This document shows positions 5,260 through 48,071 of a DNA stretch of 64,000 nucleotides, in pieces. Below the pieces are notes generated by a model. The model had not been told where the DNA came from and did no database searches. It saw only the letters and a list, made by a program, of their open reading frames with translations. A program made the position numbers and the translations under genes. Position 1 is the stretch's first letter; each line of letters begins with the position of its first letter. This DNA comes from a virus, in the IMG/VR virus record IMGVR_UViG_3300002334_000292; one strand, written 5' to 3'.

Positions 5260-6478
5260 AGTCGTCTCTCTTTCCTTTGTGGAATTTGGTGCCGCGCGGA
5301 AACCGGGGCATTCCATCTGGGGTTGGGTGGAAGTAATTGACGGTGATCTCGCCGCCGATGTAATCGTCTGCATTTTCCAGAAGGTCCTTGCAGACTGGCA
5401 TGCTACCAACAACGCCTCCTTTGAAGACAGTCAAGTTGCCTTCACCATCAAAACCTTTCAATTTTTCGTCGAAATACAGATCAGGGTCCATCGTGAAGAG
5501 CACGCGCTTCGCATGTCCAGCCCAGTTACCTTTACCTTCTTCAAATCCAACTAAGATGAACTCACCGTCGATGAATTCCTTACGCTTCATTAGTGACCAA
5601 GAGCGGGTATTTGCATATGGCATATTAGTACGAACCATCTGTCCTTCGTAACCTGCGTCGAGGTATGTGATGTACGCGGCGTCAATATCGGACTCACGGC
5701 GCATCTGCTTTGTTACAACCTGTTTGATATGTGGATGTGGTAACCCTTTTCCGAATACTGTATCCATCATAATACCAATGCTCATAACGCGAGTATAGGT
5801 ACCCACATCTGGAGCTACCGGTGTGAAGATATCATAAATGTGATACTGAACCAGCGCTTTTGATTTTGCCAGATCGTCTTCGGTTGGCTTCAATTTTTTA
5901 ACCATTGATGTGATTTGATTGAAGTCATCTTTCAGTTCGTGATTGTATAGCTCACCATCCAATACCATTTCAGATGTTTTGAACAGAGGTTTTAGAGATT
6001 CAGCAATATGCGGAACACCGACCAGTGCTTTGCCGGTGCGTGTCCAAAGGGTGACTTCGCCATCAACCATCTTTGCGATACAACGAATACCATCGAGTTT
6101 CGGTTGAGAGAATACCCCAGCTTCAAAATCCAAAGTCTTCTTCGGATTCTTCACAAAGTCAGAATACTTCTGCGCCAGCATCGGTTTGAAGATCGTCACA
6201 GTATCGAGATCGTTCTCATCCCAGACGTAACCTTTATCGAGGTTGACTTCGTACTTGGCATCAACTTCGGCAGCGGTTTGCGTGACCTCAGTCGTGGCGT
6301 TTGCTTTGCCGACATTCTTCGGCTCGCATTCAGTCCAACCGGTTGTGATTTGCTTGCCATCTGCCAGACCGGATACGGTGCGGTGGGCTTTGCCATCGGC
6401 GCGAATTTCCATGAGCCAGATGCGGGTCTTGCCCTTGGTGTCGCGCTTGTATAGGAGTTTACCTTCGTGCTGTGACAT
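5258..6478 (-). CDS. ATP-dependent DNA ligase
   Basis: KLDGIRC (motif I, KxDGxR), MVLDGELY (motif III), EGQMVR (motif IV), motifs V/VI; AAGGAAAG RBS. Confidence 0.85.
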   Translation of the reverse strand: MSQHEGKLLYKRDTKGKTRIWLMEIRADGKAHRTVSGLADGKQITTGWTECEPKNVGKANATTEVTQTAAEVDAKYEVNLDKGYVWDENDLDTVTIFKPMLAQKYSDFVKNPKKTLDFEAGVFSQPKLDGIRCIAKMVDGEVTLWTRTGKALVGVPHIAESLKPLFKTSEMVLDGELYNHELKDDFNQITSMVKKLKPTEDDLAKSKALVQYHIYDIFTPVAPDVGTYTRVMSIGIMMDTVFGKGLPHPHIKQVVTKQMRRESDIDAAYITYLDAGYEGQMVRTNMPYANTRSWSLMKRKEFIDGEFILVGFEEGKGNWAGHAKRVLFTMDPDLYFDEKLKGFDGEGNLTVFKGGVVGSMPVCKDLLENADDYIGGEITVNYFHPTPDGMPRFPRGTKFHKGKRDD

Positions 6479-9165
6479 TAAACTTTCCTTGCTGTGATTG
6501 TTGGGACGCCATTGGCGTCAAATGTTTCGAAGTCGAATACCCATTCGTTGTACAGGGCAGATTCGTCGCCGGGAGTATGCAGTTCAATTTTCTGCACGGT
6601 GTGTTTTGGATAAAAGGTATCGACATCATCTTCAACGTCGATGTACCCACATTCAAGAATATGTTCAACATGATCCATGGCAGCAGCATCGATGCGAAAC
6701 AGATCGGTGAACACTTTGTCTTCGCCACCGCTGATGAATGTTTTGACCTTATGCCAGCCATCATCAATGCCACCGAAGTAAACTTCGATCTTTCCAGTGA
6801 TTTCGAAAGTGTCTGGCGCATCGCCATATCTAACATGCACCGAACAAACACGGCAGTAGTCTTCACCGACATTGTTGTCAGGTCCATTGATATATTCACC
6901 GACCATCCAGCCATTGTCGATGATGCCATGTGCAAAATTGTCTGCTTGCTCGCGCGTTTCGAAGGAGCGCAGATAATCTTTTGGTTCATCTCCGCCAGTA
7001 TCAACGAGAGCCCGGACAGTCGAGTCTCCCTTTTTTAGAAAAAATTCAGTTTCTTTATCCAGAGCAGCTGATTTTGATTTATCACTGATGCCTACTTGAC
7101 CAGTTTCGACCGGCTCAATAAACGTCATGCAGAATCCTGCATATTTCTCGCTTGCTGGTGTGACATCAATTTCAACAACTTCTTGCTGTTCAAGGTCATA
7201 ACCATTTTGCGTAATTGATCGTGCAAAACCCAAAGCATCATCTTGGGTGTCGTGATAATCCTTCACTGTAATATTACCCAAAATCTTGCTTTTGATTACT
7301 GATTTGGTCACCCATACCTCTGCATCATCAGCATCAATGTCTGCTGCCATAGTTTTCTGCAGCGTCTCATTGATGGAGTCGATCAGTTCTTGGCGCAGTT
7401 CATAGAGGTCGCCGCCACCGCCTTCTTTGCCCAGACCAACTTTGATTGATTTGACTTCATCGGTGATGGTTACGTGTGGGCGGATGCCCTCCAGCCAGTT
7501 TCCTTTGCTGTCCAGAAACTGGTAGGTTTTGTCAGATAGGATTGTGGTGCATGTTTTATCGCTGATCATTGCGTCAATAATCTGCCGGGCGTGGTCGGCG
7601 ACGAATCCTTCATACATCTCGGTGAAGAGTTCCTGAGGCCAATTAGGATCGCTCCGCTGGCGCTCGGCTTCTTCGGCAGATAGGCAGCAAGTCGCCATAT
7701 CACTATTGAGTGTCTGCTGCGAGAAATTTTTCATTGGCTTAGGGTAGCGCGCAAAATCTGGAAATGTAACAGCGTTCCAGCTGATGCCTTCACGCACATA
7801 ATCCATCTCTCCGGCGCAGAAGTGTCCGACCTCAAGCTTAGTCGGTTTTATGTTTAGCATCTTTGTTAGCCAAGCATCTGAGTCTTCATTATAAGCACGA
7901 AACTGCTCGGCAGTGATAGGGCACGAAACTGTGACGCCACATTTTGTCTCAATGGTCAGTTCGAAAATCAGATCGGGCGTAACAGATGAAAATATCGCAC
8001 ACCTGGACGGATCAGTCCTTAGTGCCTCTTCTAACGTACAACTCACTGACGATCCAACTATGTCGGAGAGACATTTGATTGGTGGGAGTTCAATATCAAG
8101 TAGTGAGACTGTTTTGTATTCGCTTGGATCGATAGAAGGTTTCTGCCAATCAAACATCCATCCACACAGCAGAGATGCATCGATATCAAGGCAAGGATTT
8201 TTCGCCTTCTTCGCATCAAAGAACCAGCCGCAATCGAGAACATGTTGTGGGAAATAGTCAGCGAACATTTCAATTGCATGACGCTGGTCGGAAGAGAAGC
8301 CTTTGCTCGGCTCATCAAAATTCAAGTTGCTTTTGCTTTTCAATTCAGTTCGGGCAACTGTGCCACCGGCGTCGAATAAGTCCTGCATAGTTTGGAAGCC
8401 GTAGAAGTACATGCTCTTTTCACCATCAACTTCGAACTCGCCGTATCCGAGTACACCGGCTTTGTCATAGAGATCACTGGCGACAAATTTTTCCCAGTCT
8501 TTACCGTCTGCTGGGTGAAGGCCAAAGTGTGGTTCGTATGGAGTGAGTGCTTTTTTGATCTGCCAGATTTGTGCCAGGATTTCAAAGCCCATTGGATCAA
8601 TATCATCCGCTGCAAAAGCTTCGAGGTCTTCAAGCAGATCGAGTGCTTGGTCCCAGTTATCGAGATCGGCGAGATCGTTATTGTTTCGCAGGTCGGCAAT
8701 TACCTGATCGACGAAGCGCGTCAGAAACATTTCCTGTTGTTTAGGCCCGGTAAACGGTTGGATATTTTCCAATAGGTGATTGTAGGCTCTTGATCCAGTA
8801 AACCAACGAGCGGCAAATTCACCCAAAGAGAGATTTTCAGCATTCGGCGTCAGTTGGCGCATAATCAAATAGATATCTGTCATCATTTTTGTTGCATACA
8901 TTGCCTTCTGTTTTGCCGTTACCATTGTAAGCGGATTACGTTTTGGCGAAATGATGTTGAGGTATTTGTTGATAATGTGATTCATGTCTTTACCTTCTTT
9001 CGACTCAGGTGCGTTGATGTAAATGGAAGGAAATTCGTCTCGCCTATGCATAACGTATTTGTACAGAGAGTTCTCGGCAAACGGCGTCAATACGCTTTGG
9101 GTTTTCATCTGTTCGAGAATTGAGGGCATGTAAATATGCCATAGATGTGGTGGGAGCAGCGCCAT
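6478..9165 (-). CDS. large hypothetical protein (895 aa), function not recognised
   Basis: Long ORF with no P-loop or polymerase motifs identifiable by eye. Confidence 0.7.
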   Translation of the reverse strand: MALLPPHLWHIYMPSILEQMKTQSVLTPFAENSLYKYVMHRRDEFPSIYINAPESKEGKDMNHIINKYLNIISPKRNPLTMVTAKQKAMYATKMMTDIYLIMRQLTPNAENLSLGEFAARWFTGSRAYNHLLENIQPFTGPKQQEMFLTRFVDQVIADLRNNNDLADLDNWDQALDLLEDLEAFAADDIDPMGFEILAQIWQIKKALTPYEPHFGLHPADGKDWEKFVASDLYDKAGVLGYGEFEVDGEKSMYFYGFQTMQDLFDAGGTVARTELKSKSNLNFDEPSKGFSSDQRHAIEMFADYFPQHVLDCGWFFDAKKAKNPCLDIDASLLCGWMFDWQKPSIDPSEYKTVSLLDIELPPIKCLSDIVGSSVSCTLEEALRTDPSRCAIFSSVTPDLIFELTIETKCGVTVSCPITAEQFRAYNEDSDAWLTKMLNIKPTKLEVGHFCAGEMDYVREGISWNAVTFPDFARYPKPMKNFSQQTLNSDMATCCLSAEEAERQRSDPNWPQELFTEMYEGFVADHARQIIDAMISDKTCTTILSDKTYQFLDSKGNWLEGIRPHVTITDEVKSIKVGLGKEGGGGDLYELRQELIDSINETLQKTMAADIDADDAEVWVTKSVIKSKILGNITVKDYHDTQDDALGFARSITQNGYDLEQQEVVEIDVTPASEKYAGFCMTFIEPVETGQVGISDKSKSAALDKETEFFLKKGDSTVRALVDTGGDEPKDYLRSFETREQADNFAHGIIDNGWMVGEYINGPDNNVGEDYCRVCSVHVRYGDAPDTFEITGKIEVYFGGIDDGWHKVKTFISGGEDKVFTDLFRIDAAAMDHVEHILECGYIDVEDDVDTFYPKHTVQKIELHTPGDESALYNEWVFDFETFDANGVPTITARKV

Positions 9166-14385: not shown

Positions 14386-14568
14386 TTAAAATGATTTGTT
14401 TACAAGATAAACCAGTGTTGCAAGAACACCATCCATTGAATTATTCGGGCCTATTGCCACGATTACCAAAAAGGCAAGAATCACAACTAACGGTTTAAAG
14501 CTTGGCGCTAATTCATGCACTGCTACCAGTACACCAAAAGCGATAAATAGTAAAATTGCTAGTTCCAT
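14386..14568 (-). CDS. small membrane protein (two TM helices; start at internal Met MELAILLF)
   Basis: Hydrophobic ORF preceded by the conserved leader copy. Confidence 0.45.
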   Translation of the reverse strand: MELAILLFIAFGVLVAVHELAPSFKPLVVILAFLVIVAIGPNNSMDGVLATLVYLVNKSF

Positions 14569-14629
14569 AATCTTGCCTCGTTTTGTTGTTCCGATAAGAT
14601 GAATATAGCATTCAAATCTTACCAAAGGG

Positions 14630-14974
14630 TTAAGAAAATAATATTTCTTCACCACCGCCTTTGATACGATGAACTTTATGCATATCAAAGCAACGCATGC
14701 GGTTAAAATCAGTCAAGCCTGTTTCGTTGTTGTGTTCATACAAGTTGTACAGTTGTGGGTTGTTCGCCTTGCGTGTTGCAATCTGGCGTTTGCCTTTCTC
14801 TGTTGCTTTGTCGCCCTTGGCTGCATTCTTGACAGCCTTTGGATTGAAAACCATTGTGCGCATATCGCCATTCTTCTTTTTGAAGAATACGCTCACAAAT
14901 TTTGCGCCTTGCTTATCGATAAAAGAAAGAATTTCGGCGCGCTTGGCGTCCTGTTGTTCTGGTGTCAAAATCAT
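14630..14974 (-). CDS. basic hypothetical protein (114 aa)
   Basis: ORF preceded by a degenerate copy of the conserved leader. Confidence 0.5.
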   Translation of the reverse strand: MILTPEQQDAKRAEILSFIDKQGAKFVSVFFKKKNGDMRTMVFNPKAVKNAAKGDKATEKGKRQIATRKANNPQLYNLYEHNNETGLTDFNRMRCFDMHKVHRIKGGGEEILFS

Positions 14975-15035
14975 AATGTTGTTTCCTGTTGTTGTTTCGA
15001 TGGTTAGAATTTAGCATTGAGGTATTAACAAAAGG

Positions 15036-15215
15036 CTAATGATTAGCCCAATAATGCGCTTTTACCCATGGCCTTGCCGCCTCAATTGATTCAGCTATAT
15101 GAATCACTTTTCCTTTGAATTCGACAACAATATCCATAAACGAATTATGACTCATGCCATAACCACGTTTAAACATTAGTTGATCAAATTCGTGACATTG
15201 TACTTCATTTAACAT
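15036..15215 (-). CDS. small hypothetical protein (59 aa)
   Basis: ORF with GAAGG RBS; just below the track length threshold. Confidence 0.35.
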   Translation of the reverse strand: MLNEVQCHEFDQLMFKRGYGMSHNSFMDIVVEFKGKVIHIAESIEAARPWVKAHYWANH

Positions 15216-15218
15216 GAA

Positions 15219-15419
15219 TTAGCCTTCTACTTTAAAATGCTGTTTCGGTTCTTGCGCATCTGACTTTGTTTTCTCGCCTCCCGAAGGCGCGCCAGTGATA
15301 CAAATTGTATAGCCTTCAATTGTCTTGAAGTGAAATACACATTTATGCGAATTGATAGACGAATCGGCAAGCGCAACACTTGGCGCAATTACTAGTAGTG
15401 CAATTAAAAGATTTCTCAT
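15219..15419 (-). CDS. small secreted protein (signal peptide MRNLLIALLVIAPSVALA)
   Basis: ORF; 4-nt overlaps link this and the next two genes. Confidence 0.5.
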   Translation of the reverse strand: MRNLLIALLVIAPSVALADSSINSHKCVFHFKTIEGYTICITGAPSGGEKTKSDAQEPKQHFKVEG

Positions 15420-15619
15420 GTTGTTTTCTTTAGGTTTGGGTTTCTAAATAGACGCCCGGCAATGAAACCGGATTCGTAGTCTGCAATCTGGTATTTGTTC
15501 CAAGTGTCTGGAATGTCATACCACGATGTTTTTAAGGCTAGTTTATAGCCTCGCATATATAATTTATTTCCCACATTTGCAGGATCAAAATCTCTTGATA
15601 ATTTGCAGGAGTCATTCAT
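15416..15619 (-). CDS. small hypothetical protein
   Basis: ORF with ATGA overlaps on both sides. Confidence 0.45.
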   Translation of the reverse strand: MNDSCKLSRDFDPANVGNKLYMRGYKLALKTSWYDIPDTWNKYQIADYESGFIAGRLFRNPNLKKTT

Positions 15620-15864
15620 ACCCTTGACTCCCTTGCATCAGCAAAACCTAAACGGTAAAGCGTTTTTTCCTCCGGGTTGTATAAATGACTCGGGCTTGAA
15701 AGTTTATCCCATGCATAGCCCTTGTTAAAGCCTTCCATATAGAAACGGCTATCGCAATAATCTGGGTTCATGCATTCTTCTGCTGGTCTAATTCGTCGTT
15801 TCATGTTCACATCCAGGTTTTGTTTCGTTGCATTATACATAGTCGTTATTTTCTTAGAACACAA
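15616..15864 (-). CDS. small Cys-containing hypothetical protein
   Basis: ORF. Confidence 0.45.
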   Translation of the reverse strand: MCSKKITTMYNATKQNLDVNMKRRIRPAEECMNPDYCDSRFYMEGFNKGYAWDKLSSPSHLYNPEEKTLYRLGFADARESRV

Positions 15865-15920
15865 GCCGATTCGTTTTAGTTGGTTTATAGAGCGTTAATG
15901 TTCAGAAAAAATTTTACCTA

Positions 15921-16077
15921 GCACATAAAAGTTGCGTGTGAATTTTTTCGAGTGCATAAAAGTTGCGTGTGAATTTTTTCGAATACATAAAAGTTGCGTG
16001 TGAATTTTTTGCCGGTTCAAAATTTTCGTGTGGAAATTTTCCACTCACATAAAAATCGGTCTGTCAATTTTTCGACC
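15921..16077. repeat. Iteron-like tandem repeats: three ~32-bp copies (CATAAAAGTTGCGTGTGAATTTTTTCGA) plus degenerate copies
   Basis: 15921-15953, 15954-15985 and 15986-16015 nearly identical; a degenerate copy at 16046-16077. Confidence 0.65.
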
Positions 16078-16099
16078 AACAAAATTTTGGTATGGTTAA

Positions 16100-16360
16100 T
16101 TTTCCGTTAACGTAATTTCACACGTTAACCTTAATTCGTAAGGTTAACAAATGTTTAATTTTGCAAAACGTTAACCTTAATAATTATGATGAACATTGGT
16201 TAACGATTGACAACAAATCGTTTCCAGACTAAGTTAACAAAAGATGAAATTCACATTTCGTTAACCTTAACGAATCGTTAACTGGTTAACGTTAAGATTT
16301 TGTTAACCACGTTTTTTAACGATTTGTTAACCATCTTTTTTCACCAAGTCCGTTAACCAT
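16100..16360. repeat. Dense array of ~12 GTTAAC(C) motifs, including the palindromic operator GTTAACCTTA-N5-TAAGGTTAAC at 16126-16150
   Basis: Irregular spacing of 10-30 bp; not CRISPR-like. Confidence 0.6.
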
Positions 16361-16481
16361 GCTGCACGCAGAAACACGGCGAGCCGCAAAAAGCCGTCAA
16401 GCAGAAAAATTTCTTCTTCCGCGCTGCGCGCCGAGAGCTCGCCAAGCAAGCAAGCATGAAATCTTTTTTCTTTCTTTCAGC

Positions 16482-16781
16482 TCAAGCCGGATTACTCCTC
16501 AACTCATCCTCTATCACTGCTGAGCTATCCAGTGCAGCCGTACAGCATTGACCCAAAACAAACTCAAAATTCTCCTGATCGAAATGCCTTGAAGCGTCCT
16601 GAATATAATTTGATCTGTCAAATAATTCCTTGGCGATTTCTTGCTGCTTTAATCTGTACCCATAGAGTGGCATCACTTTTCTATTTTTGACATGCCACAG
16701 CTTTTTCCACCAGTGCTGTTTCTTTGCGTCGATGGTTTGCATTCGATCATATTCTTCAATTGATTTACCTAAGATTTGCAT
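16482..16781 (-). CDS. hypothetical protein (99 aa)
   Basis: ORF. Confidence 0.5.
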   Translation of the reverse strand: MQILGKSIEEYDRMQTIDAKKQHWWKKLWHVKNRKVMPLYGYRLKQQEIAKELFDRSNYIQDASRHFDQENFEFVLGQCCTAALDSSAVIEDELRSNPA

Positions 16782-17204
16782 GAATTTTAAATAGCATATA
16801 TGCCCCCTGGGAGCAAGCGTGAACCGATTCCTAATTCTGGTTTTCGATCAATAGACCCACCCCATGTTTGAAACTCGCAGGGTCCCTACTGCCTCCTAAA
16901 ATGTGTGGTGTGGGCATAACACACATGTGTTTTGAGTTCTCATTTGTATTTAACCGTTTTGTTAAGGAGTTCTAAGAAAATGTGCAAACTCTTAGATCAA
17001 AAATAAAGACAAGCAAAATCAGTAACTTAGAGGATTAGTTCTAAGAAAATGACAGTGCTTGTTCTAAGGAAATCACGGGATTTTGTGTGGTATGTCAGTT
17101 ACCACAGAGATATACAATTGGATTTGTGGTTAATTTTCATGTCAAGTAAAATCGTTTGTTAAGGTTAATAGTAGATTTTCGCCGGGGAAAAAATCGTTTG
17201 TTAA

Positions 17205-20883: not shown

Positions 20884-21420
20884 ATGACTGACAAAGAGAT
20901 AATTGACCAGCTAATCAAAGAGTATCTCAGCATCGTTTCTGCTTACGATCAGGTTGCGTTGGTTAAACCCGAACTCTTATATATGCCACAACACGGCCCA
21001 CAACACCTGAAAGATTCATTACAATTGGTTCAGGGAAAGAATGATTTGGAGACCGTGCTCAAGCGCTATAATAGATCAGTCACTCAATTAAACAAGCGTC
21101 TTCATTCAGCCAATAAACCGCGCAGCAGTCACGTTGCGTTCATAGACATTGTTTCATTGCGTAAACATTATGATGGCACCAACCGATACAACCTCTCGAA
21201 CAACTCTTATGTGGACACTGTAATTTCTGCGATCCAAAAACACATCCCGGCACCGAAACTAAAAGCTTTCGACAATCTCGTGGAGCAAGCGCGCATTGGT
21301 GAGTACATGCAGCAGCGCGTTCCCAACGGCACACTCAAAGATTTTGACCTGCTGATTACCAACGCCGAGGAATGGCGAAAACACACGATCCGTGAAAAAC
21401 ACAAAGCGAGCAAAGCATGA
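20884..21420 (+). CDS. hypothetical protein (start at MTDKEII, AAAGG RBS)
   Basis: ORF. Confidence 0.5.
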   Translation: MTDKEIIDQLIKEYLSIVSAYDQVALVKPELLYMPQHGPQHLKDSLQLVQGKNDLETVLKRYNRSVTQLNKRLHSANKPRSSHVAFIDIVSLRKHYDGTNRYNLSNNSYVDTVISAIQKHIPAPKLKAFDNLVEQARIGEYMQQRVPNGTLKDFDLLITNAEEWRKHTIREKHKASKA

Positions 21421-21713
21421 AAGTCCTAAAGAAACCACTCCCCTTCCAAGTCGAAGTGCACTGCACTGGCAAAGGTAACGAGAAATCAGGTTGTGGCGCG
21501 CTACTGCTCGTCGACCGGGATGATCTGCGTTATTTCTCACCACGAGAGACCACGTTTCATATTCCCTCTGAACAAGTGGTTGTAGGTTGTCCTGAATGTG
21601 GACACTCAACCGATCTGGAGCCAGCCCAATACCCGCACCGCCATACATCTCTTACTCCATGGTCAAGGCAATGGCGAGAAAACAATCGAAACTTTGCAAA
21701 AGGATCAGAATAA
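21417..21713 (+). CDS. small Cys-containing (zinc-ribbon-like) hypothetical protein
   Basis: ATGA overlap with the upstream gene; CxxxxxxC...CxxC. Confidence 0.45.
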   Translation: MKVLKKPLPFQVEVHCTGKGNEKSGCGALLLVDRDDLRYFSPRETTFHIPSEQVVVGCPECGHSTDLEPAQYPHRHTSLTPWSRQWRENNRNFAKGSE

Positions 21714-21916
21714 TGTTCATCGTATGGAACGCAAATAAAACCGAAGGCTTTGTCACCGACGACCGCACCGATGCTAATGAAGCAATGACTGGCGAACACG
21801 GCGTTATGGGTTGCCCACTTGCCGAGCGGTTCTACGAATTGTATGGCGAAGGCGGCGAATGCATAAAACAATTCATCCCAGAATTGGAAAACCTAAAAGA
21901 CATCAACAAATCATAA
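21714..21916 (+). CDS. small hypothetical protein
   Basis: TAATG overlap with the upstream gene. Confidence 0.4.
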
Positions 21917-21932
21917 ACACAGGAATAAAAAT

Positions 21933-22928
21933 ATGACAACATACATCCAATGTGAATGTGGTAACGAGAACGATCCGACGATGGAATCTGAATGTGGGTA
22001 TTGCGGCGAGCCGGTAGGTCCTGCAAACAAAGTCTACGTTGCAAAGAAATTCAACAAAGACCACCAGCACATCATCAGCCGGGCAAACGTATTCATCGAA
22101 GAGTATCGCAAGCAGGGTTACAAATTGTCTCTGCGCCAGCTGTATTACCGCTTCATTGCGAAAGCTTGGTTGCCAAACACTGAGCAATCATACAAACGCC
22201 TTGGCAGCATCATTACGGACGCGCGCCTTGCAGGTGAAATTCCGTTCGACCGTATCGAAGATCGTGGACGCAAATGTAAATTACCATACAACAATGACGA
22301 GCCAGCCAGTGTTCTCGATGGTATTGAATATGCCTATTCCGAAGATCGCTGGGCAACTCAAGACACCTACGTGGAAGTCTGGGTTGAGAAAGATGCTCTG
22401 TCAAATGTGATCGAGCGACCATGCAACACTTGGGATGTTCCGTACATGGCCTGTAAAGGATACATGTCTGCCTCTGCGCAGTGGGACGCTGGCAACCGAT
22501 TTAAAGCTGCCGAAGCAGAAGGCAAGCGTACCGTCTTGATTCACCTTGGCGATCACGATCCATCTGGCATCGACATGACAAGAGACAACCAAGTGCGCGT
22601 CTCCATGTTTTCCGAATGTGAGGTTGAAATCCGCCGCATCGCCATGAACATGGATCAGATTGAGAAGTACAGTCCGCCACCCAACCCAACAAAAGTAACC
22701 GATAGTCGTGCGAAAGCCTACATGCGAGAATTTGGTGATACCTCTTGGGAACTCGACGCACTGACTCCATCCGTCATTAGCGATCTGATCTCATCTGAAA
22801 TCAAAAGCTTCATCGACTTCGAAGCATGGAATGCAGCCGGTGAGATTGAGCGTGAGAACCGTGAGATGCTTGCCAAGATCAGCGACAACGCACAGGCTGT
22901 GTTGGATTTCGTATCTGAAAACTTCTAA
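21933..22928 (+). CDS. Zinc-ribbon + Toprim protein with Spo11/TopoVI-A-type motifs (putative DNA-cleaving enzyme)
   Basis: N-terminal CxC-x11-CxxC; RQLYYRF (candidate 5Y-CAP catalytic Tyr); Toprim VEKDA and GDHDPSGIDM (type IIB style, not DnaG EGxxD/DxDxAG). Confidence 0.5.
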   Translation: MTTYIQCECGNENDPTMESECGYCGEPVGPANKVYVAKKFNKDHQHIISRANVFIEEYRKQGYKLSLRQLYYRFIAKAWLPNTEQSYKRLGSIITDARLAGEIPFDRIEDRGRKCKLPYNNDEPASVLDGIEYAYSEDRWATQDTYVEVWVEKDALSNVIERPCNTWDVPYMACKGYMSASAQWDAGNRFKAAEAEGKRTVLIHLGDHDPSGIDMTRDNQVRVSMFSECEVEIRRIAMNMDQIEKYSPPPNPTKVTDSRAKAYMREFGDTSWELDALTPSVISDLISSEIKSFIDFEAWNAAGEIERENREMLAKISDNAQAVLDFVSENF

Positions 22929-22947
22929 ACAAACGACAGGAAACAAT

Positions 22948-23568
22948 ATGACTCACTCACTCACTCATCTCGTACTCACCATTCCATATAAGGAAGTGCA
23001 TAAAGAAGCCACCAAGGAAAGCAAAATGCGCGCGGCAATCTCCCGGGCGTTCGGGGAAACAATTGGACGCTGCAATTGGAAACGAGATTTGGTTTTCACA
23101 ATCACGCCGGAGCAGTACACCCACTTCCTGATGTTGATGAACGACATCTATGATTTAATTCCCAAGTGGCTCGTCCAGGTGCGTAACAGAGATGACATGC
23201 CAAGGCAAAGAAAAATCTGCAATGCGACCAAATATAGAAATAAAGGTATTAGGGGTTGCAGTAGCCGATCAACGCCATCCTATCTGTCATTCTTATTGCG
23301 AGCGCCAGCACAAAACTTCAATGGCACCGAGGCACATCATGCGCCGATAATGATTAATATGGTTAAGAATGTATTCAAAATTGACATTGAAGAAGAGCAA
23401 AACGATATCGTAATTCACTGCCGACCGGATCAGTTTGCCGCATATCTGCTTGCTCGCAAAGATGAGGCTTTTGTCGATAAGATCATAAATATGCAACTCG
23501 AAGAAATTACCTCCGAGCAGCTGAATGGAACAATGCAATTCGATTGCACCCAGAAAGATGTACAATGA
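22948..23568 (+). CDS. hypothetical protein
   Basis: ORF with AGGAAA RBS. Confidence 0.5.
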   Translation: MTHSLTHLVLTIPYKEVHKEATKESKMRAAISRAFGETIGRCNWKRDLVFTITPEQYTHFLMLMNDIYDLIPKWLVQVRNRDDMPRQRKICNATKYRNKGIRGCSSRSTPSYLSFLLRAPAQNFNGTEAHHAPIMINMVKNVFKIDIEEEQNDIVIHCRPDQFAAYLLARKDEAFVDKIINMQLEEITSEQLNGTMQFDCTQKDVQ

Positions 23569-23996
23569 TCAAGAAACTCAGAGCAAAGGTAGACGCCTTG
23601 GAATATGAGTTGTCACAGGCAATCGGCGTAGAAATGATCGACAACATACGCGCTCAGCTGAATGAAGCCAAGCATGAACGCGATCATTATGAAGATGCGC
23701 TGGACGTAGAGGTTGAAAAAGACTGCTCGACGGCATCAGACATCTTGGATAAAGTACAAGAAGACAGCCGGAATTCAATGTACACTCAAGCTAATCGCCG
23801 CGATCTTTTGATCGAGTATATCGCCAATGCTTTAGGCGCTGTTAGAGAAGAAACAGTTGCCGCCATGGATGATATGCATGACCTGCAACCCTTCATGACA
23901 GAAGCTCAAAAAATTGCTGACCTTGACATAGGTAACATGTCTGTGCGAGATATAGCATCGAAACTCAAAGCGGCACACGCTAAGGAAAAAGCATGA
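23565..23996 (+). CDS. coiled-coil hypothetical protein
   Basis: ATGA overlap. Confidence 0.45.
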   Translation: MIKKLRAKVDALEYELSQAIGVEMIDNIRAQLNEAKHERDHYEDALDVEVEKDCSTASDILDKVQEDSRNSMYTQANRRDLLIEYIANALGAVREETVAAMDDMHDLQPFMTEAQKIADLDIGNMSVRDIASKLKAAHAKEKA

Positions 23997-24859
23997 CCAC
24001 AACAGAATATGAAAATTTAAAATCTCAGGTACACGATGGGCTATCCAATGTTGAGCATAAGATAAAAGGCAACGCGCCGTACAAAGAGAAGCTTGACGCA
24101 GCTACAAAATTGGTAGCCGCCCGGCAAGCGCTGGAGACATACAAAAAATGTGCCCCGCCGATGCACGAAGACGCTGCTGCTTTTGAAAGATTAGCTACCG
24201 AAGATGTAGATCGCAAAGCTGATAAGATTGTCGCGCGCCGAGCAAAATTCGCCCGGGATATTGACTCGGTTGCTCTACCCAGCTTGAAAAATTTTGACAG
24301 CATTGCAAGTCTCCTTGGCATTAAAGATTCGAACTATACCAGCGAGACCGGCAACGCCCTGCATACGTCAATCAACTTCATGATGATCTGCAAATACATT
24401 GCTGTGATGGAAGAAAACTATGACGCATTGCTTGATCAGCAATCATCGCACAACCGCGAGCATTATCTCCCGGATCGTGAGCCCAATGATTTTGAGGTTA
24501 TTCAAAAAGAGATGGCTGAAACATTCAATCCCATGGTCAAATTTCAGGCAGTCGAGGAAAGTAAAAGCATCACACAACGCTGCAAAGAAACACTCGACAT
24601 ACACCGCAAAGAAGATTGGTCTGTCTATCTAAAACAGGCGCGACTGATCTCATATCTGCAGATCACCGATGTATCTGTAAACGGGATTGCCAAGCGACTC
24701 AAATACCTGGCTGAGCAGAGAGACGATCTCACTACCGGAGTCGTGCCACCAGCAAAAGTGACTGAATCCAGCGGCACCACGCACATCATCACAGAGACGG
24801 TGGACAAGAATACGATCATCATGAATGGACGTAAAACGGATGGAGGATCATCGATATGA
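23993..24859 (+). CDS. hypothetical protein (288 aa)
   Basis: ATGA overlap. Confidence 0.55.
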   Translation: MTTTEYENLKSQVHDGLSNVEHKIKGNAPYKEKLDAATKLVAARQALETYKKCAPPMHEDAAAFERLATEDVDRKADKIVARRAKFARDIDSVALPSLKNFDSIASLLGIKDSNYTSETGNALHTSINFMMICKYIAVMEENYDALLDQQSSHNREHYLPDREPNDFEVIQKEMAETFNPMVKFQAVEESKSITQRCKETLDIHRKEDWSVYLKQARLISYLQITDVSVNGIAKRLKYLAEQRDDLTTGVVPPAKVTESSGTTHIITETVDKNTIIMNGRKTDGGSSI

Positions 24860-26398: not shown

Positions 26399-26567
26399 AG
26401 ACGGAATTCGCGATCTATATGAAGACGCATCGGTAGAGCGAGTGAAAAAACTCGCCGGTGACCGCATGGCGCATGCTATCCGGCACAAGCTGAACGAAGG
26501 CATGAGCCTTGACGATCTGCGCGCCCTCATGAGCAAAGTACGCTCGGCAATCAAGAGGCAGACATAA
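26385..26567 (+). CDS. small hypothetical protein
   Basis: ORF. Confidence 0.35.
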   Translation: MGMIEDGIRDLYEDASVERVKKLAGDRMAHAIRHKLNEGMSLDDLRALMSKVRSAIKRQT

Positions 26568-26992
26568 TGATAATTTTTGATTTAGATGGCACACTTGCCT
26601 TAAACGAACATCGACAACACTTTGTCAAAGGACCGAAGGGCGACCGTGATTGGGATGGCTTCTTCGACGCCTGTGGTCAAGATGAACCTAATGCGCCTAT
26701 CATTGATACCTTGAAAATATTGATTGAAAACCATCACGTTGAAATCTGGACAGGGCGCATTGAAAGAGTGAAGGTGAAGACAAAAATCTGGTTGCGCAAT
26801 CAAGGTCTCGGACGTGTTCCACTTCGGATGCGCCCAGAGGGTGAGCACTGCCCGGACACTGAACTCAAGCAGCGCTGGATCGATGAAGCATCACTCAATA
26901 TAACAATGGCGTTTGATGATCGAGATTCTGTCGTCGCAATGTGGCGTGCGAACGGTATTGTCTGCTGCCAAGTGGCACCGGGGAATTTCTGA
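26567..26992 (+). CDS. HAD-superfamily phosphatase (putative nucleotidase)
   Basis: N-terminal FDLDGTL (HAD motif I). Confidence 0.6.
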   Translation: MIIFDLDGTLALNEHRQHFVKGPKGDRDWDGFFDACGQDEPNAPIIDTLKILIENHHVEIWTGRIERVKVKTKIWLRNQGLGRVPLRMRPEGEHCPDTELKQRWIDEASLNITMAFDDRDSVVAMWRANGIVCCQVAPGNF

Positions 26993-31268: not shown

Positions 31269-31539
31269 TGTTTCAGGGCTTAGGTAAAGATATAGATAAG
31301 ATGCTCTGGACGTTTGGTATCGCCATTGGTTTAGTTGTCTTTGGCATTGCTTTTGGTGCAGGATATGCAACGGCGGTATGGCTATGACTACACCTTCCGG
31401 CAGACACTCCTACAGCCCACCGGCAATACAGGAAGTCAATAGATTATGTCGACGCGGCGTTAAGCCACCATTAACCTACGTTGACTTATCTGATATTGAA
31501 TCCCGAATACTTGCGCATTATTTAAACCCGGAGAAAACC

Positions 31540-32571
31540 ATGAAATACGATCTTCATTCAGCTTTAGACGAAATCAGGAAAACCACTTTCAGCGATGATG
31601 CCGGTAAACTACTGTCTTACAATAATGCCTTCAACTGGATTGAAGAGCAGGATACGCTGGACAGCAAACGCATTTCAGAATTATCCGGTAAAGATGCTCA
31701 GATCAGAGACATGCAAAAATTGCTCGAAGAAAAAGAGGTGCTTAACGGCACCCTTATGGAATACGCCGAAGAGCAGCAGAGCGAAGATATCGAAGACGCA
31801 AATGAACTGATTGCACTACGTAAGCAAGCTGCTGACGATGCCGAAAGAATCCGTCATCTGATCGCAGATAAGCAAAATCTCCAAGATCATATTTTGATGT
31901 TTGGCAAAGCTAATCCCGATCTGGCTGATCTGATGCGAAAATCAGATCAGTACGATACACTATTGCGCCAACATGATGAGTTGGAAAAGTGCCGGACCAA
32001 TCAAGGTCACACTATTGCACTAATGCGGGAACGAGCCGATGAACATGAGAAGAAGATGGAGACGGCGGAGCTAGTTGCTGCCAATCTCAGACTAGCTCTG
32101 GTAGAGGAAGCGCGCGATGCCTCCTCCTACAAAGATAGTTATGCAAAATCAAATGATGCGTACTCCGCCGCCGTGAAAACGAGAGAGCATGCCCTTGACA
32201 CCGTGGCACGTCAGGAAGACATAATTTACACTCAAAAAGAGGAAATTGAGGGTCAGAATATAAGAATTGAAACGCTGAATCAAACTAAGAAAAAAATGAG
32301 TCAGCAGATATATTCTTTGGATCGTAAACACGAACAGTTTACAAGAAACACAGGATTTGTCACCGGAAGATCGGATCATACGATCAAAAATGAAAGTGCT
32401 TCGCCAAGTCTTAGCACTTATGGATCAAGCACTCATCTTAATAACAACAAACCGATGAGCATCAAGCTAGCAATACATCAAATGAAGAACAGTCTCGCAA
32501 TGCAGGGCTATAATCATTATCGTTTTCTTGACGATCCTGCATTCAAATGGTTGGAGGAAAAGTATGGGTAA
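31540..32571 (+). CDS. coiled-coil protein (start at MKYDLHS, GGAG RBS; track start 31378)
   Basis: Long alpha-helical, charge-rich ORF. Confidence 0.45.
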   Translation: MKYDLHSALDEIRKTTFSDDAGKLLSYNNAFNWIEEQDTLDSKRISELSGKDAQIRDMQKLLEEKEVLNGTLMEYAEEQQSEDIEDANELIALRKQAADDAERIRHLIADKQNLQDHILMFGKANPDLADLMRKSDQYDTLLRQHDELEKCRTNQGHTIALMRERADEHEKKMETAELVAANLRLALVEEARDASSYKDSYAKSNDAYSAAVKTREHALDTVARQEDIIYTQKEEIEGQNIRIETLNQTKKKMSQQIYSLDRKHEQFTRNTGFVTGRSDHTIKNESASPSLSTYGSSTHLNNNKPMSIKLAIHQMKNSLAMQGYNHYRFLDDPAFKWLEEKYG

Positions 32572-34682: not shown

Positions 34683-34932
34683 ACGGTACAAAATATGTGG
34701 ACCAACTTCTAGTGGAAATTTCTTTGTTTCTTATCATGTGTGGGGACCGTTCTGGAAAAAGTCTATTATGGATGGCTGGTACTATCCACGGCAATATGAC
34801 AGTTTTGCTACAGCAGAAATATATCTTAAAACTCAGCGCAAACAAGACGCAGTAATTGATGAGGCAGTTGCAGACGCAAAAATAAAAAAAGCACAACGAA
34901 GAAAAGATTACAAATGTCAGGAAATAAAATGA
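34674..34932 (+). CDS. hypothetical protein
   Basis: ORF. Confidence 0.4.
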
Positions 34933-35936
34933 GCAAGCAAACTCTCGGCGTCTTCATCGGACGCTTCCAACCATTTCACGCCGGTCATCTGGAAACAACC
35001 AGACAGGCGCTGGAGCTTTTTGATAAAGTGATTATCATTATTGGCTCGGCGGACGTACCGGCAACAACTAAAAATCCTTTGGATATAGAGGCGCGCTCAG
35101 CAATTATTACAGCAGCATTCACCACTGAGGAATTAGCACGTATCCACATCACCCGCGCAGACGACCATGACTACCAGCCAGGGCGCTGGATTGAACAGAT
35201 CAAAATTCTGGTAGAGTGGACTCATTCACCCGACCAGTGGGACATCACGCTGGTAGGACATCACAAAGATGAATCTTCATCTTATCTGGACTGGTTTCCA
35301 AATTGGAACTTCTACGAGTCTGAAAATTTCGATGGCATGGGTGCTACGACAATCCGTGATCAGTTTTTCAATGGCAGTTCACAATTTATTTCTCCGAATT
35401 TCTTCTGCAACGAAAAACATCGGGCAGAAGTGTTTGATCGGATGACGCCACTGGCAGATATTCTCAGACCGGAATGGTGCCTAATTCACGAATATGAGAG
35501 CATTTGGGGTAAAGGGCCTCACAGGACCGCTGACGCGCTTGTCGAGTGCAACGGTCATATCCTACTGATTGAACGCGGCCAAGCGCCCGGCAAAGGTCTT
35601 CTGGCGTTTCCCGGAGGCTTTCTGGAAAAAGGCGAGAGATTAATTGATGCTTCTATCCGAGAATTGATGGAAGAGACTAATATTGGTATCACAAAAAGTG
35701 AACTAATTGACTCTGCTTCACTTCCAATTGTGTTCGATGCCAAAAATCGCGATCCGCGCAGTTGGAATATCTCTGGGTTGACACATTTCAAAATTACGGC
35801 TACGACTTTACCAGACGTACACCCAGCAGACGATGCGGCAAAAACAAGCTGGTATCCAATCACCATGATGCATGGTAAAGGAAAATTATTCTTTGCGGAC
35901 CACTATCGAATTATTCAGAAACTTCTAAACGTTTAG
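34929..35936 (+). CDS. natV: Bifunctional NMN adenylyltransferase / Nudix hydrolase
   Basis: GRFQPFHAGH (HxGH nucleotidyltransferase motif) and Nudix box GGFLEKGERLIDASIRELMEETNIG. Confidence 0.8.
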   Translation: MSKQTLGVFIGRFQPFHAGHLETTRQALELFDKVIIIIGSADVPATTKNPLDIEARSAIITAAFTTEELARIHITRADDHDYQPGRWIEQIKILVEWTHSPDQWDITLVGHHKDESSSYLDWFPNWNFYESENFDGMGATTIRDQFFNGSSQFISPNFFCNEKHRAEVFDRMTPLADILRPEWCLIHEYESIWGKGPHRTADALVECNGHILLIERGQAPGKGLLAFPGGFLEKGERLIDASIRELMEETNIGITKSELIDSASLPIVFDAKNRDPRSWNISGLTHFKITATTLPDVHPADDAAKTSWYPITMMHGKGKLFFADHYRIIQKLLNV

Positions 35937-35944
35937 GAAATAAC

Positions 35945-36343
35945 ATGCCAGTCAATAAACAGAATATTGATATCTTGATAGACATCCTAAAAGATGAAGA
36001 AGTATTTTTTGATATGGCAGATTATCAAATCTATACATCGCCATCTTCATGCGGAACAGCTTCATGCGGAACAGCTTCCTGCCTATGTGGGCATATTAAT
36101 TATATATTGAACGGAGGTAAAATGGAACCTCAGGATTGGGGTAGACATAGTACAGCAAATAAGTTCTTGGGAATCTCGGACAGCGAAGGTAGGCTGTTAT
36201 TTTTACCGGAAGAGAAGGTCATGCCAGACATATATGGCGGCGATCTTTCACTTCAAAGAAAACTGGCGATAAATACATTACTGCATCTTAAAGAGACTGG
36301 CGAAGTTAACTGGTCTGATGCTAATCAAAAAATCGGAGCATAA
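35945..36343 (+). CDS. hypothetical protein with internal 15-bp tandem duplication (SCGTASCGTASC)
   Basis: ORF. Confidence 0.45.
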   Translation: MPVNKQNIDILIDILKDEEVFFDMADYQIYTSPSSCGTASCGTASCLCGHINYILNGGKMEPQDWGRHSTANKFLGISDSEGRLLFLPEEKVMPDIYGGDLSLQRKLAINTLLHLKETGEVNWSDANQKIGA

Positions 36344-36344
36344 C

Positions 36345-37751
36345 ATGACAGCCAATATTATTCTCGACACCGACAGCTACAAGCAAAGTCACCATCTGCA
36401 GGACCCACCCGGTACCACGCACAAATCGTTCTACATCACGGCGCGGGGAAACCCGGACACTGATTGTGAAGTTGCATTTCTGGGGCTGCAGCCGTACATC
36501 GAAAATATGCGCATCAACGCACAGAATATTGAAGAAGCGCAAGACGTTATTCCGAAGCACATCCCCGGGCTGGAATTCAATTTCGATGGCTGGCAAACAA
36601 TCCTCAATGAATTCGATGGCTTTCTTCCTATCGCCATTGATGCGCTGCCGGAAGGAACTGTTGTCGAACGTGGTACACCGATGTTGCAGACGCACAACAC
36701 CGATCCTCGTTTTCCTTGGCTCTGTGGGCATCAGGAAACTCGTATGCTCCGTTCGATCTGGTATCCATCTACGGTTGGTACCAAATCTCGTGGCTACAGG
36801 AGATTGATCGAAGAAGCTCTCCGCAAAACAGGTGGCGATGTTGACTCCGCTGTATTCAAGCTCCACGATTTCGGTGCGCGCGGCGTATCATCTCGTGAAT
36901 CTTCTGCCATCGGCGGCTGGGCGCATCTCACCAGTTTTCAAGGTACGGATACAATGATGGCGCTGCTACATGCTCGCCAATATTACAATTGTGATATGGC
37001 TGGATTTTCCATACCGGCGTCCGAACACTCAACAATGGCCTGTTGGGGTGAAGGGCGAGAGGTCGAAGCATACCGTCACATGCTGGAGACTTTTGGTCAC
37101 ACGATGTTTGGCACCGTCTCAGACACATGGGATATTGAAAACGCCTGTACAAATGTTTGGGGCAACACGCTCAGAGATGAAGTTATTGCAATTCTTGGTC
37201 AGCTTGTCGTCCGCCCCGACTCTGGCGCAGTAATCCCAATGGTGCTAGATTGTTTGGATCGCCTCGGTGTCCAGTTTGGTATTACCTTCAACAATGATGG
37301 CTTCAAAATGCTGCACGATAAAGTGCGGTTGATCCAAGGTGATGGACTTGACGATACTTCTTTACCCCTCCTGATTGGTGCTATTGCTGATGCATTGTGG
37401 TCACTCGATAATACTGCATTTGGTATGGGTGGCGGTCTGCTGCAGAAGCACAATCGTGATGATTATAAATGGGCGATGAAATGTAATGCTATCTCATATG
37501 GTGATGAGGTCTGGCATGGAGTCAACAAAGAACCAAAATCTGATCCAGGCAAAGCGTCTGCAAAAGGCAGAGCCTGGGTGAGCCAAGAAAATCATGTCTG
37601 GTATTCCAGCAGACATCAGCTATTAAGTTTTGAGGAAGATACAAATCCGGTCTTTCCTAATGCGCTCATCACTCATTATGTCAATGGCTTCACAACCATC
37701 GACGGTGACATGGAAGCTATTCGTGAAAGGGTTGCTCAAGATGTCAGATAA
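36345..37751 (+). CDS. nadV: Nicotinamide phosphoribosyltransferase
   Basis: N-terminal ILDTDSYK, HDFGARG, VRPDSGA motifs; GGAG RBS. Confidence 0.85.
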   Translation: MTANIILDTDSYKQSHHLQDPPGTTHKSFYITARGNPDTDCEVAFLGLQPYIENMRINAQNIEEAQDVIPKHIPGLEFNFDGWQTILNEFDGFLPIAIDALPEGTVVERGTPMLQTHNTDPRFPWLCGHQETRMLRSIWYPSTVGTKSRGYRRLIEEALRKTGGDVDSAVFKLHDFGARGVSSRESSAIGGWAHLTSFQGTDTMMALLHARQYYNCDMAGFSIPASEHSTMACWGEGREVEAYRHMLETFGHTMFGTVSDTWDIENACTNVWGNTLRDEVIAILGQLVVRPDSGAVIPMVLDCLDRLGVQFGITFNNDGFKMLHDKVRLIQGDGLDDTSLPLLIGAIADALWSLDNTAFGMGGGLLQKHNRDDYKWAMKCNAISYGDEVWHGVNKEPKSDPGKASAKGRAWVSQENHVWYSSRHQLLSFEEDTNPVFPNALITHYVNGFTTIDGDMEAIRERVAQDVR

Positions 37752-40340: not shown

Positions 40341-40634
40341 ATGAAAATAACTCAGCAAGGATCAAGAACAAACGTCACTATGACGTTTTCAAATGGGTAC
40401 AGCGTCAGTCTGACATCAGGCCACCGTGTAGGCTTGGAAGATTTTGGAATCATCTGGGCTGCATATTGGTCTGCAATCGACACCACCACAATCTCAGTTA
40501 ATGAGTGGATGTATGATGATGAAGCTACTAAGTTTCTTGATTACATGAGCAAACTGGAGCCAGTCAATAATACTGTTGACAGTAAAGAATATATCGACGC
40601 AGACATCATCAAAATTTTTGGAGGCAATGGATGA
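40341..40634 (+). CDS. hypothetical protein
   Basis: ORF with AAGGA RBS. Confidence 0.45.
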   Translation: MKITQQGSRTNVTMTFSNGYSVSLTSGHRVGLEDFGIIWAAYWSAIDTTTISVNEWMYDDEATKFLDYMSKLEPVNNTVDSKEYIDADIIKIFGGNG

Positions 40635-48000: not shown

Positions 48001-48071
48001 ATCCATTCTGGGAACTCATTTGAATTTTTGCCGAAGCCGTGAAAGATTGCGTGATCAATACCTGATGTCAT
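45054..48071 (-). CDS. DNA primase/helicase (P4/D5-type with SF3 P-loop)
   Basis: Walker A IHGDKGCGKS, Walker B LLVVMTE; 1005 aa. Confidence 0.75.
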   Translation of the reverse strand: MTSGIDHAIFHGFGKNSNEFPEWMQDKVTISIGRNSKDKNWRTQEFTFFEFLAGNLVHEVGTKDGLSFLQGCLAEDRIQRLKKAMVEMNFISLDIDNGFPIDKMIERIKENDLFALVYTSNSHGNTEENILLKTIKMKLKLDKDENDIDADDVRKYLLEEKKYHPGVLDKFEVSLESTRYGRVAVVSHSPMDKYRAVFPLYEPFLPGEVAGSQDEGFAIWAKKYAGVAQQLKIEFDASCTDVSRLFYRGRHKEDAPFESHLINGELLDLMSIKDGNPSGYIKMTGNEWLDQEAMSSGGDEEGDYFDYDFHDKRVEGFLKKHGKNFLAYEFWETYGVKHSEEKAGKGTFECTFIGGHSDPNDKTGFCVADAGEQYDTAFIHCMHTSCKGYKYSMHLDSFLHDEGIEFDELMEFVPGLDGSGSANSLSDLLDEETEIEDSGLYTEKIGNLNVSKDEFDNLSEDYQDFLSLISDMPEKKEAALIDAIKRLIGLELSSAMNDLHVSQISDNSGFGKRTVAKQVKDVIKQLAEEEFGTADKRYDKEVKQNLRIMNERHAMVTMNGRTIIMYDKAYRRDPAKNSITTMVPYDFNIRHRNKMLDVFDVAQGNTIQKNAADVWLDWADRREYSSLVFDPSGGNIMKDDVDGLGKTYNLWNGFAVEEKEDGNCDMLLDHIYENMCHSNDVWYDFFMSWFAHIIQVPEGIPGCAIVIHGDKGCGKSIVMEEIFANILLHPYGMKTADMKTVFGHFNARVENKLLVVMTEAFWGGDRTVEANLKDAITSNSFTLKLKGVDDMEIPNYRRFACTANAGFVVPATKDERRFFVLKCLSTLCGNPEHFGALMDQMLNEDGYGKLMHILTNWPEPKEGWKAYFFKPPVTPWLHEQISQNKPHWEKWLDDALYQGEALPSSQYADDLDEIVFSEDEETLVPHSVMHAWWKHNTRSNPHTSFIKECKKYMNQTFEDVVTSRRRVASYANPIWCYVFPPLSEMRVNHPSIFAETWLDDEQEVA

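Follow-up and report, generated by a model that had tools for sequence, protein, structure and literature searches.

A Mini-A protein with a predicted N-terminal zinc ribbon, related to Topo VI-A and Spo11, in a large aquatic-type phage

The locus described here raises the question of how a phage comes to encode a protein resembling the A subunit of topoisomerase VI (Topo VI-A, Top6A) and Spo11 with no B subunit alongside, whether such a gene is new to phages, and what its product might do. The gene lies in a stretch of 64,000 nucleotides of viral DNA (IMG/VR record IMGVR_UViG_3300002334_000292), which we refer to as the window and which covers part of the phage genome. It is an open reading frame of 331 amino acids that starts with ATG and occupies positions 21933-22928 of the plus strand, stop codon included, and it is supported by a match to PHROG 6247, by homologues and by fold matches. 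Co-oriented genes are packed closely around it, with 21916 as the end of the upstream ORF and 22948 as the position of the next ATG.

Several sequence features, all on the plus strand, can be followed along the protein. The N-terminus carries four cysteines (C7, C9, C21 and C24; 21951-22004) in a putative zinc-ribbon module spanning approximately residues 1-30, which is followed by a predicted winged-helix or truncated 5Y-CAP domain (about residues 40-135; 22050-22337) and a predicted Toprim domain (about residues 143-250; 22359-22682). The winged helix contains the RxxY/F-Y motif R68-Q-L-Y71-Y72 (22134-22148), in which Y72 is the predicted catalytic tyrosine and R68 a conserved arginine. Within the Toprim domain, E152 (22386-22388) of the VEKDA sequence is the predicted metal-site glutamate, and D207-H-D209-P-S-G212 (22551-22568) forms the predicted DxDxxG metal-binding motif. 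Towards the C-terminus follow the xWELDAL box S271-W-E273-L-D-A-L277 (22743-22763), a signature of the Mini-A family, and a pair of long helices (residues 296-318 and 320-330; 22818-22925) modelled with pLDDT values of at least 85, which may possibly serve in dimerisation. A first-pass annotation had listed C7-x-C9...C21-x2-C24, RQLYYRF, V151-E152-K-D-A and G206-D207-H-D209-P-S-G212-I-D-M, and we find each of these motifs in place; the S271-WELDAL-277 box was absent from that list. Taken as a set, the motifs in this frame are far above chance level.

A new member of the Mini-A family

The window protein adds a member to a viral family that is very abundant and has been described before. Mini-A proteins have been defined as stand-alone homologues of the Topo VI A subunit of approximately 300 amino acids, encoded by bacterial and archaeal viruses, with proteins of Pseudomonas phage NP1 and of a Listeria monocytogenes prophage among the reference members (Takahashi et al., NAR Genom Bioinform 2019/2020, PMC7671362). 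[quoted passage not shown] Residues 33-328 of the window protein match phrog_6247, annotated as 'DNA topoisomerase', with E=6e-106, and tblastn aligns residues 37-318 to NP1 (KX129925.1) at 42.8% identity (E=3e-68). Like published Mini-A proteins, it has a core of about 300 residues with a truncated 5Y-CAP and a Toprim domain, the RxxY/F-Y motif, the glutamate, DxDxxG and a literal WELDAL, and it is encoded by a virus with no B subunit beside the gene among the window ORFs scanned. Every trait used to define the family in print (homology, size, tyrosine motif, Toprim residues, WELDAL, lack of a B subunit and viral origin) is therefore found in this protein.

Homologues are widespread. Searching with tblastn recovered them in 85 deposited phage genomes, in every case below 60% identity, including Roseobacter phages RDJL Phi 1 and 2, Pseudanabaena phage Pam3, Xylella phages Sano and Salvo, Pseudomonas phages NP1 and PaMx25, Chi-like Salmonella phages and the archaeal virus HCIV-1. 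The deposited records name them 'hypothetical', 'DNA binding protein', 'DNA topoisomerase' or 'DNA topoisomerase VI'. At a cutoff of E<=1e-5, a database search gave no fewer than 7,998 homologous clusters, with matches down to E=1e-137 and the best non-identical one at 4e-137. When 1.84 billion cluster representatives (50% identity) were screened exhaustively with a profile, at least 11,308 scored E<=1e-3, of which 2,453 scored E<=1e-30. The first-pass annotation was therefore mistaken in setting the gene apart from standard phage genes, given the published family, its PHROG, the 85 phage genomes and the size of the cluster set. The discovery value of the locus is correspondingly small, because stand-alone Topo VI-A/Spo11-like phage proteins were named in 2019/2020 and are already included in annotation resources. 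What the searches do illustrate is the abundance of Mini-A, with none of the at least 11,308 clusters being covered by a Pfam model.

Conservation centres on the putative active site. In an alignment of 26 sequences, R68, Q69, L70, Y72, E152, D207, H208, D209, P210, S211, G212 and all residues from W272 to L277 are invariant, and W299 in the C-terminal helices is at least 90% conserved. Among the 120 closest clusters, the glutamate, DxDPxG and WELDA[LM] motifs each occur in all 120 and RQL[Y/F/H]Y occurs in 119. Loss of the paired tyrosines among homologues had been named in advance as an observation that would speak against a Topo VI-A-like enzyme; instead, the second tyrosine is present in 119 of 119 sequences, and the first position is occupied by tyrosine in 113, phenylalanine in four and histidine in two. 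Most relatives are 297-310 amino acids long.

The phage carrying the gene has its nearest relative in Microcystis phage Mwe-JY26, with 47-48% identity in TerL and PolA, and its terminase and polymerase are approximately 40% identical to those of large roseobacter, Sphingobium and CbK-like Caulobacter phages. A megablast search with positions 21000-24000 gave no match to deposited phages, so no close relative exists among them at the nucleotide level. Unlike the phages of 55-60 kb that dominate the Mini-A family, the window phage belongs to a different and larger lineage, and the locus accordingly adds an occurrence of Mini-A in a new, large aquatic-type phage lineage.

Kinship with Topo VI-A and Spo11

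Sequence searches with family models do not reveal this relationship. The first-pass annotation had proposed Pfam (TP6A_N, Toprim_4) as a check, but no Pfam family matched the window protein at E<=10, and none of 26 homologues yielded a TP6A_N or Toprim match; NCBIfam likewise gave no meaningful match for the window protein, and HMMER searches of PDB sequences, with either the single sequence or a profile, returned only noise and neither Top6A nor Spo11. In this respect the protein differs from Top6A (PDB 1D3Y, 2ZBK, 2Q2E and 9O0G), as genuine Top6A sequences carry PF04406, PF21180 and PF20768. The kinship to Topo VI-A is visible only by comparison of folds and of profiles.

An AlphaFold2 model built on the alignment (pLDDT 88.9, pTM 0.79) places a winged helix ahead of a Toprim domain, with strand beta1 (145-151) ending at E152 and beta3 (199-206) ending at D207. 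When the model was searched against the PDB with Foldseek, six Topo VI-A chains were the only matches below E=1e-3. The structural comparison suggested at the outset came out in favour of the original proposal, the top matches being Topo VI-A and Spo11 and not DnaG or T7 primase. Global TM-scores were modest (0.39-0.46), which we attribute to the presence of two hinged domains. A search of the viral fold collection BFVD was uninformative.

Profile comparison points in the same direction. Aligning a profile of 59 Top6A sequences to one of 158 Mini-A sequences with hhalign produced a single co-linear alignment of 196 columns with E=0.007 and a low hhalign probability, in which LSLRQLYY of Mini-A pairs with STLREIYY of Top6A, VWVEKDAL with IAIETGGM, and GDHDPSG with TDGDPWS. 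In this alignment, R68, Y72, E152, D207 and D209 correspond to R102, Y106, E202, D254 and D256 of M. mazei Top6A. Spo11 and M. mazei Top6A sequences were recovered from PDB alignments; against these single sequences the Mini-A profiles kept the motifs in register at E-values of 0.02-0.3 (0.2-0.3 for Spo11), which are not significant. The R68-Y72 motif aligns to RDIFY of Spo11 (Y135) and RELYY of M. mazei Top6A, E152 to VEKEA of Spo11 and IETGG of Top6A, and the DHDPSG motif to DADPYG and DGDPWS, respectively. The window protein is thus predicted to share with Topo VI-A and Spo11 a winged helix and a Toprim domain in which the catalytic tyrosine, the glutamate and DxD follow in the same order.

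These correspondences allow the predicted active site to be read against recent structural work. A 2026 cryo-EM study of the M. mazei enzyme showed that Y106 forms a 5'-phosphotyrosine link beside the metal site that E202, D254 and D256 form in the other subunit of the dimer, and that a salt-bridge clasp between R102 and E342 restrains cleavage, the E342Q variant cleaving far more readily (PMC13040014). The Mini-A authors take WELDAL as the box equivalent to the glutamate-bearing box of Top6A (PMC7671362). At this C-terminal position Top6A has KxEQQA where the window protein has WELDAL, and neither relaxed nor C-terminal-only hhalign runs aligned the two; because both alignments missed that register, we do not claim E273 as the counterpart of the clasp residue E342.

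The N-terminal zinc ribbon

The feature that distinguishes the window protein from published Mini-A is its N-terminal Cys4 module of approximately 30 residues. The first-pass annotation had described a CxC...CxxC ribbon at this position, and C7, C9, C21 and C24 are present as stated; the pattern C-x(1-4)-C-G-N-x-N-x(6-7)-C-x2-C recurs in 31 of the 120 closest clusters, which argues for a conserved module and against a chance scatter of cysteines. Searching 26 homologues with Pfam gave weak matches to Zn_ribbon_3 or Zn_Ribbon_1 in four and a RanBP match in one, and the AlphaFold2 model shows short beta strands in this region with pLDDT values of 73-79. We take the module to resemble the RanBP2-type consensus and infer that it binds zinc. 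The words 'zinc' and 'cysteine' do not appear in the paper describing Mini-A (PMC7671362).

Most of the family does without this module. Nearly all of the 150 best representatives at 50% identity start at profile position 29-31 and hence have no ribbon, and none of the six homologues from cultured phages whose N-terminal sequence was read carries it. When residues 1-72 were used as a tblastn query, the listed matches began at residues 25-39, with the exception of one read-through artefact. N-terminal matches in Serratia phage Smarc5, Clavibacter phage 33 and Xylophilus phage Lumi were rejected as ribbons, since they reflect tblastn reading through into upstream sequence. Proteins lacking the ribbon have a proper methionine 37-38 residues ahead of RQLYY and are consequently not truncated.

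When the core regions of 119 sequences are placed on a neighbour-joining tree, the distribution of the ribbon requires at least six gains or losses, and the window protein falls into the largest clade in which every member carries it (14 members). Judged by these sequence patterns, the ribbon is a real and conserved, yet evolutionarily labile, accessory module. It is an optional add-on that probably provides binding to nucleic acids or to a partner. This undescribed variant is a minor elaboration of the known family.

Genomic context and possible function

Approximately 60 window ORFs were scanned with PHROGs or Pfam at HMMER sensitivity, and none encoded a GHKL, Bergerat-fold or topoisomerase B protein; the earlier remark that no GHKL gene is nearby holds for this set. 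The window encodes the large and small terminase subunits, portal, DNA polymerase I, a primase-like protein and two helicases, as well as a ligase, a RecE-like exonuclease and a Holliday-junction resolvase. Mini-A occupies the fourth position in a block of plus-strand genes, most of them unknown, which runs divergently from the terminase module, has the appearance of an early region and lies approximately 20 kb from the replication block, so that a role in replication has no support from local context in this phage. Scans for promoters, terminators and repeats around the gene gave results at chance level.

The surroundings of the gene differ between relatives. In RDJL Phi 2 it adjoins the DNA polymerase gene, in PaMx25 it stands between ligase and Sak4 and close to a Cas4 exonuclease and a helicase, in SPN19 it adjoins ThyX, and on metagenomic contigs it is found near ligase, RNR and ThyX. 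An all-against-all BLAST of the flanking genes from eight loci (the window, three cultured phages and four metagenomic loci) identified no conserved neighbour. Two genes that stand side by side in locus L006 have homologues in L007 and L008 with the Mini-A gene between them, which indicates that Mini-A moves as a single gene.

We consider it likely that the window protein, taken as a whole, is a ribbon-bearing Mini-A that functions as a DNA cleavage-religation or DNA-breaking module and not as a true type II topoisomerase. If it works as Topo VI and Spo11 do, two copies would assemble on duplex DNA, where Y72 of one copy would attack the phosphodiester beside a Mg2+ ion held by E152, D207 and D209 of the other. 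The resulting covalent 5'-phosphotyrosyl link would leave a nick or a staggered double-strand break, either of which might be resealed. With the Top6B-docking part of 5Y-CAP missing and no GHKL B subunit among the ORFs scanned, we would not expect strand passage driven by ATP; lacking an ATPase gate, such a protein would most likely be limited to cleavage and religation or to breakage. In the phage, it might take part in DNA replication or recombination, for example by nicking or breaking the DNA to start replication intermediates or resolve them. This is the most likely biological role, because relatives of the gene lie among genes for polymerase, ligase, recombinase, exonuclease and nucleotide metabolism, and it is also the weakest step of the explanation. 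The first-pass annotation had raised host DNA attack, replication initiation and anti-defence as roles that such an enzyme might have. Replication initiation has been put forward as a hypothesis for small archaeal viruses (bioRxiv 10.1101/2021.07.29.453957), and reviews up to December 2024 term the role of Mini-A unexplored. We found no biochemical characterisation of any Mini-A protein in the published literature.

Archaeal Top6A requires the B subunit and ATP for cleavage, and a lone A-like subunit may therefore be inactive without a partner. Spo11, too, acts together with a Top6B-like protein and other accessory partners (PDB 8URQ/8URU; PMC11746154), whereas none is evident for the window protein. 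One alternative is that the protein is half of a true type II topoisomerase, pairing with a diverged phage 'Mini-B' or a host ATPase for ATP-dependent strand passage. Deposited names such as 'DNA topoisomerase' and 'DNA topoisomerase VI' would fit this reading, and a viral or host partner was left possible by the authors who defined Mini-A (PMC7671362); the window moreover holds only part of the phage genome and includes large ORFs without a family, of 895 amino acids (6478-9165) and 397 amino acids (31378-32571). However, the roughly 60 ORFs contain no GHKL or Bergerat-fold match, the eight loci share no neighbour while the position of the gene shifts between related contigs, and the Top6B-binding part of 5Y-CAP is missing (PMC7671362), Y72 following only about 40 residues after the ribbon as compared with Y106 in M. 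mazei Top6A. We therefore regard a topoisomerase half as improbable. Equally little weight falls on a Toprim nuclease akin to MksG/JetD (Wadjet) that would hydrolyse DNA with metal-activated water and no tyrosine intermediate and might, for example, degrade host or competitor DNA. MksG (PDB 8B7F) has no tyrosine in the domain equivalent to 5Y-CAP and is encoded in an SMC-like operon (PMC10123090), as part of MksBEFG/Wadjet plasmid defence. In contrast, Mini-A has kept the tyrosine and has no SMC-like neighbours. The PADLOC defence models, those of JetD/MksG type included, gave no matches at E<=10, and it is this result together with the invariance of Y72 that disfavours the nuclease.

Two further readings concern whether the predicted active site is used, and for what. 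By itself, Topo VI-A binds DNA but does not cut it, and some actinophage records label the homologues 'DNA binding protein', both of which would suit a catalytically dead protein that merely binds or bends DNA. Strict invariance of R68, Y72, E152, D207 and D209 over thousands of diverged sequences would then be hard to explain, and we hold this to be very improbable. A primase-like protein of the DnaG/T7 type, in which a zinc-binding domain and Toprim would serve primer synthesis, has next to no chance of being correct. The Toprim motifs are VEKDA and DHDPSG and not EGxxD and DxDxAG, in agreement with their original assignment to the Topo VI-A/Spo11 type; primases have nothing equivalent to the tyrosine motif of the winged helix, most family members have no zinc ribbon, and the phage encodes a separate primase-like protein at 45054-48071. 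Structural matches to primases span approximately 119-129 residues, in our reading the Toprim domain alone, and rank behind those to Topo VI-A and Spo11, with no primase rising above noise in Foldseek. On the basis of motifs, Foldseek results and structural ranking, identity as a DnaG-type primase was rejected. The proposal of a stand-alone Topo VI-A/Spo11-like protein, from which this analysis started, is borne out by the fold matches, the co-linear motifs, the ribbon and the lack of a detectable B subunit.

A bolder version of the preferred cleavage module, which appears rather unlikely, would make the ribbon-bearing Mini-A a self-sufficient, ATP-independent breaker and thus a viral counterpart of Spo11. 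The zinc ribbon would here direct the protein to particular DNA structures or sites, and the 5'-tyrosyl breaks would seed recombination-dependent replication of the phage or be inflicted on host or competitor DNA. We note beside this that the phage has its own RecE-like exonuclease, Holliday-junction resolvase, ligase and helicases. If true, the A-subunit module would work alone, which would bear on the origin of Topo VI and Spo11. More generally, Mini-A represents the simplest natural form of the module that makes meiotic DNA breaks, and whether it cleaves DNA by itself would inform models for the origin of Topo VI and Spo11 as well as for the control of cleavage. As a separate observation on the gene content of this phage, the window includes one gene pair for NAD salvage and another for RNA repair (Pnk and RtcB).

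Apparent mobility and architectures of Mini-A

The gene for Mini-A, the stand-alone viral Topo VI-A/Spo11-like family, seems to have moved on its own, by insertion or relocation of this one gene. Two genes that adjoin each other in one metagenomic relative (L006 2085-3292) have homologues on either side of Mini-A in two further contigs (L007 7643-9827 and L008 600-2729), and it is this separation of an otherwise adjacent pair that points to the movement of one gene. The family also has fused architectures beyond the zinc ribbon, given that several cluster representatives from the profile search, P0204, P0264, P0232 and P0142 among them, measure 375-680 aa and are thus far longer than usual, with the Mini-A core located either C-terminally or N-terminally.

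Cysteine motifs and a possible partner

Both zinc knuckles of the Mini-A protein in the window are encoded by near-identical 13-nt stretches recovered in a repeat scan, AATGTGAATGTGG at 21949-21961 and AATCTGAATGTGG at 21985-21997; their likeness probably stems simply from the E-C-G motif that recurs in the peptide. A 98-aa ORF located two genes upstream (21417-21713, plus strand) found no match in the PHROG scan and carries the cysteine pairs C16...C25 and C58-x2-C61. These pairs suggest a second small zinc-ribbon protein, putatively encoded in the same operon as Mini-A.

A diverged partner of Mini-A could in principle be concealed in an 895-aa ORF (6478-9165, minus strand) or a 397-aa ORF (31378-32571, plus strand), the sole sizeable family-less ORFs of the window able to do so; neither was matched in the PHROG or Pfam scans.

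Modification and nucleotide genes in Mini-A phages

Genes characteristic of pathways for DNA modification or unusual nucleotides occur in several phages that encode Mini-A. PAPS-reductase-like genes are present in phage SPN19 (2993-3679) and in contig L004 (2400-3230), and dATP/dGTP pyrophosphohydrolases (PF04447) in L006 (9297-9722) and L007 (14158-14556). L004 additionally encodes a ribonucleotide reductase large subunit of 1,140 aa (14401-17029), which contains intein-splicing and LAGLIDADG homing-endonuclease domains. Phage PaMx25, another carrier of Mini-A, is classified in the Queuovirinae.

NAD-salvage, RNA-repair and recombinase genes of the window

Two neighbouring plus-strand genes of the window belong to NAD salvage: a fusion of a cytidylyltransferase/NMN-adenylyltransferase with a Nudix domain (34914-35936; phrog_395, E=7e-60) and a nicotinamide phosphoribosyltransferase (36318-37751; phrog_448, E=2.5e-129). 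Together, they could regenerate NAD+ and thereby counter NAD-depleting host defences. A polynucleotide kinase (26567-26992; phrog_415, E=1e-35) and an RtcB-type RNA ligase (40631-42046; phrog_1075, E=5e-76), both likewise on the plus strand, constitute an RNA-repair pair; phages use such combinations of kinase and ligase for mending cleaved tRNAs.

The replication gene block of the window opens with a plus-strand gene for a tyrosine recombinase of the Phage_integrase family (48456-49043; Pfam PF00589, E=1e-17). At only 195 aa, the protein is too small to be a typical integrase, and one possibility is that it functions in the resolution of replication dimers.
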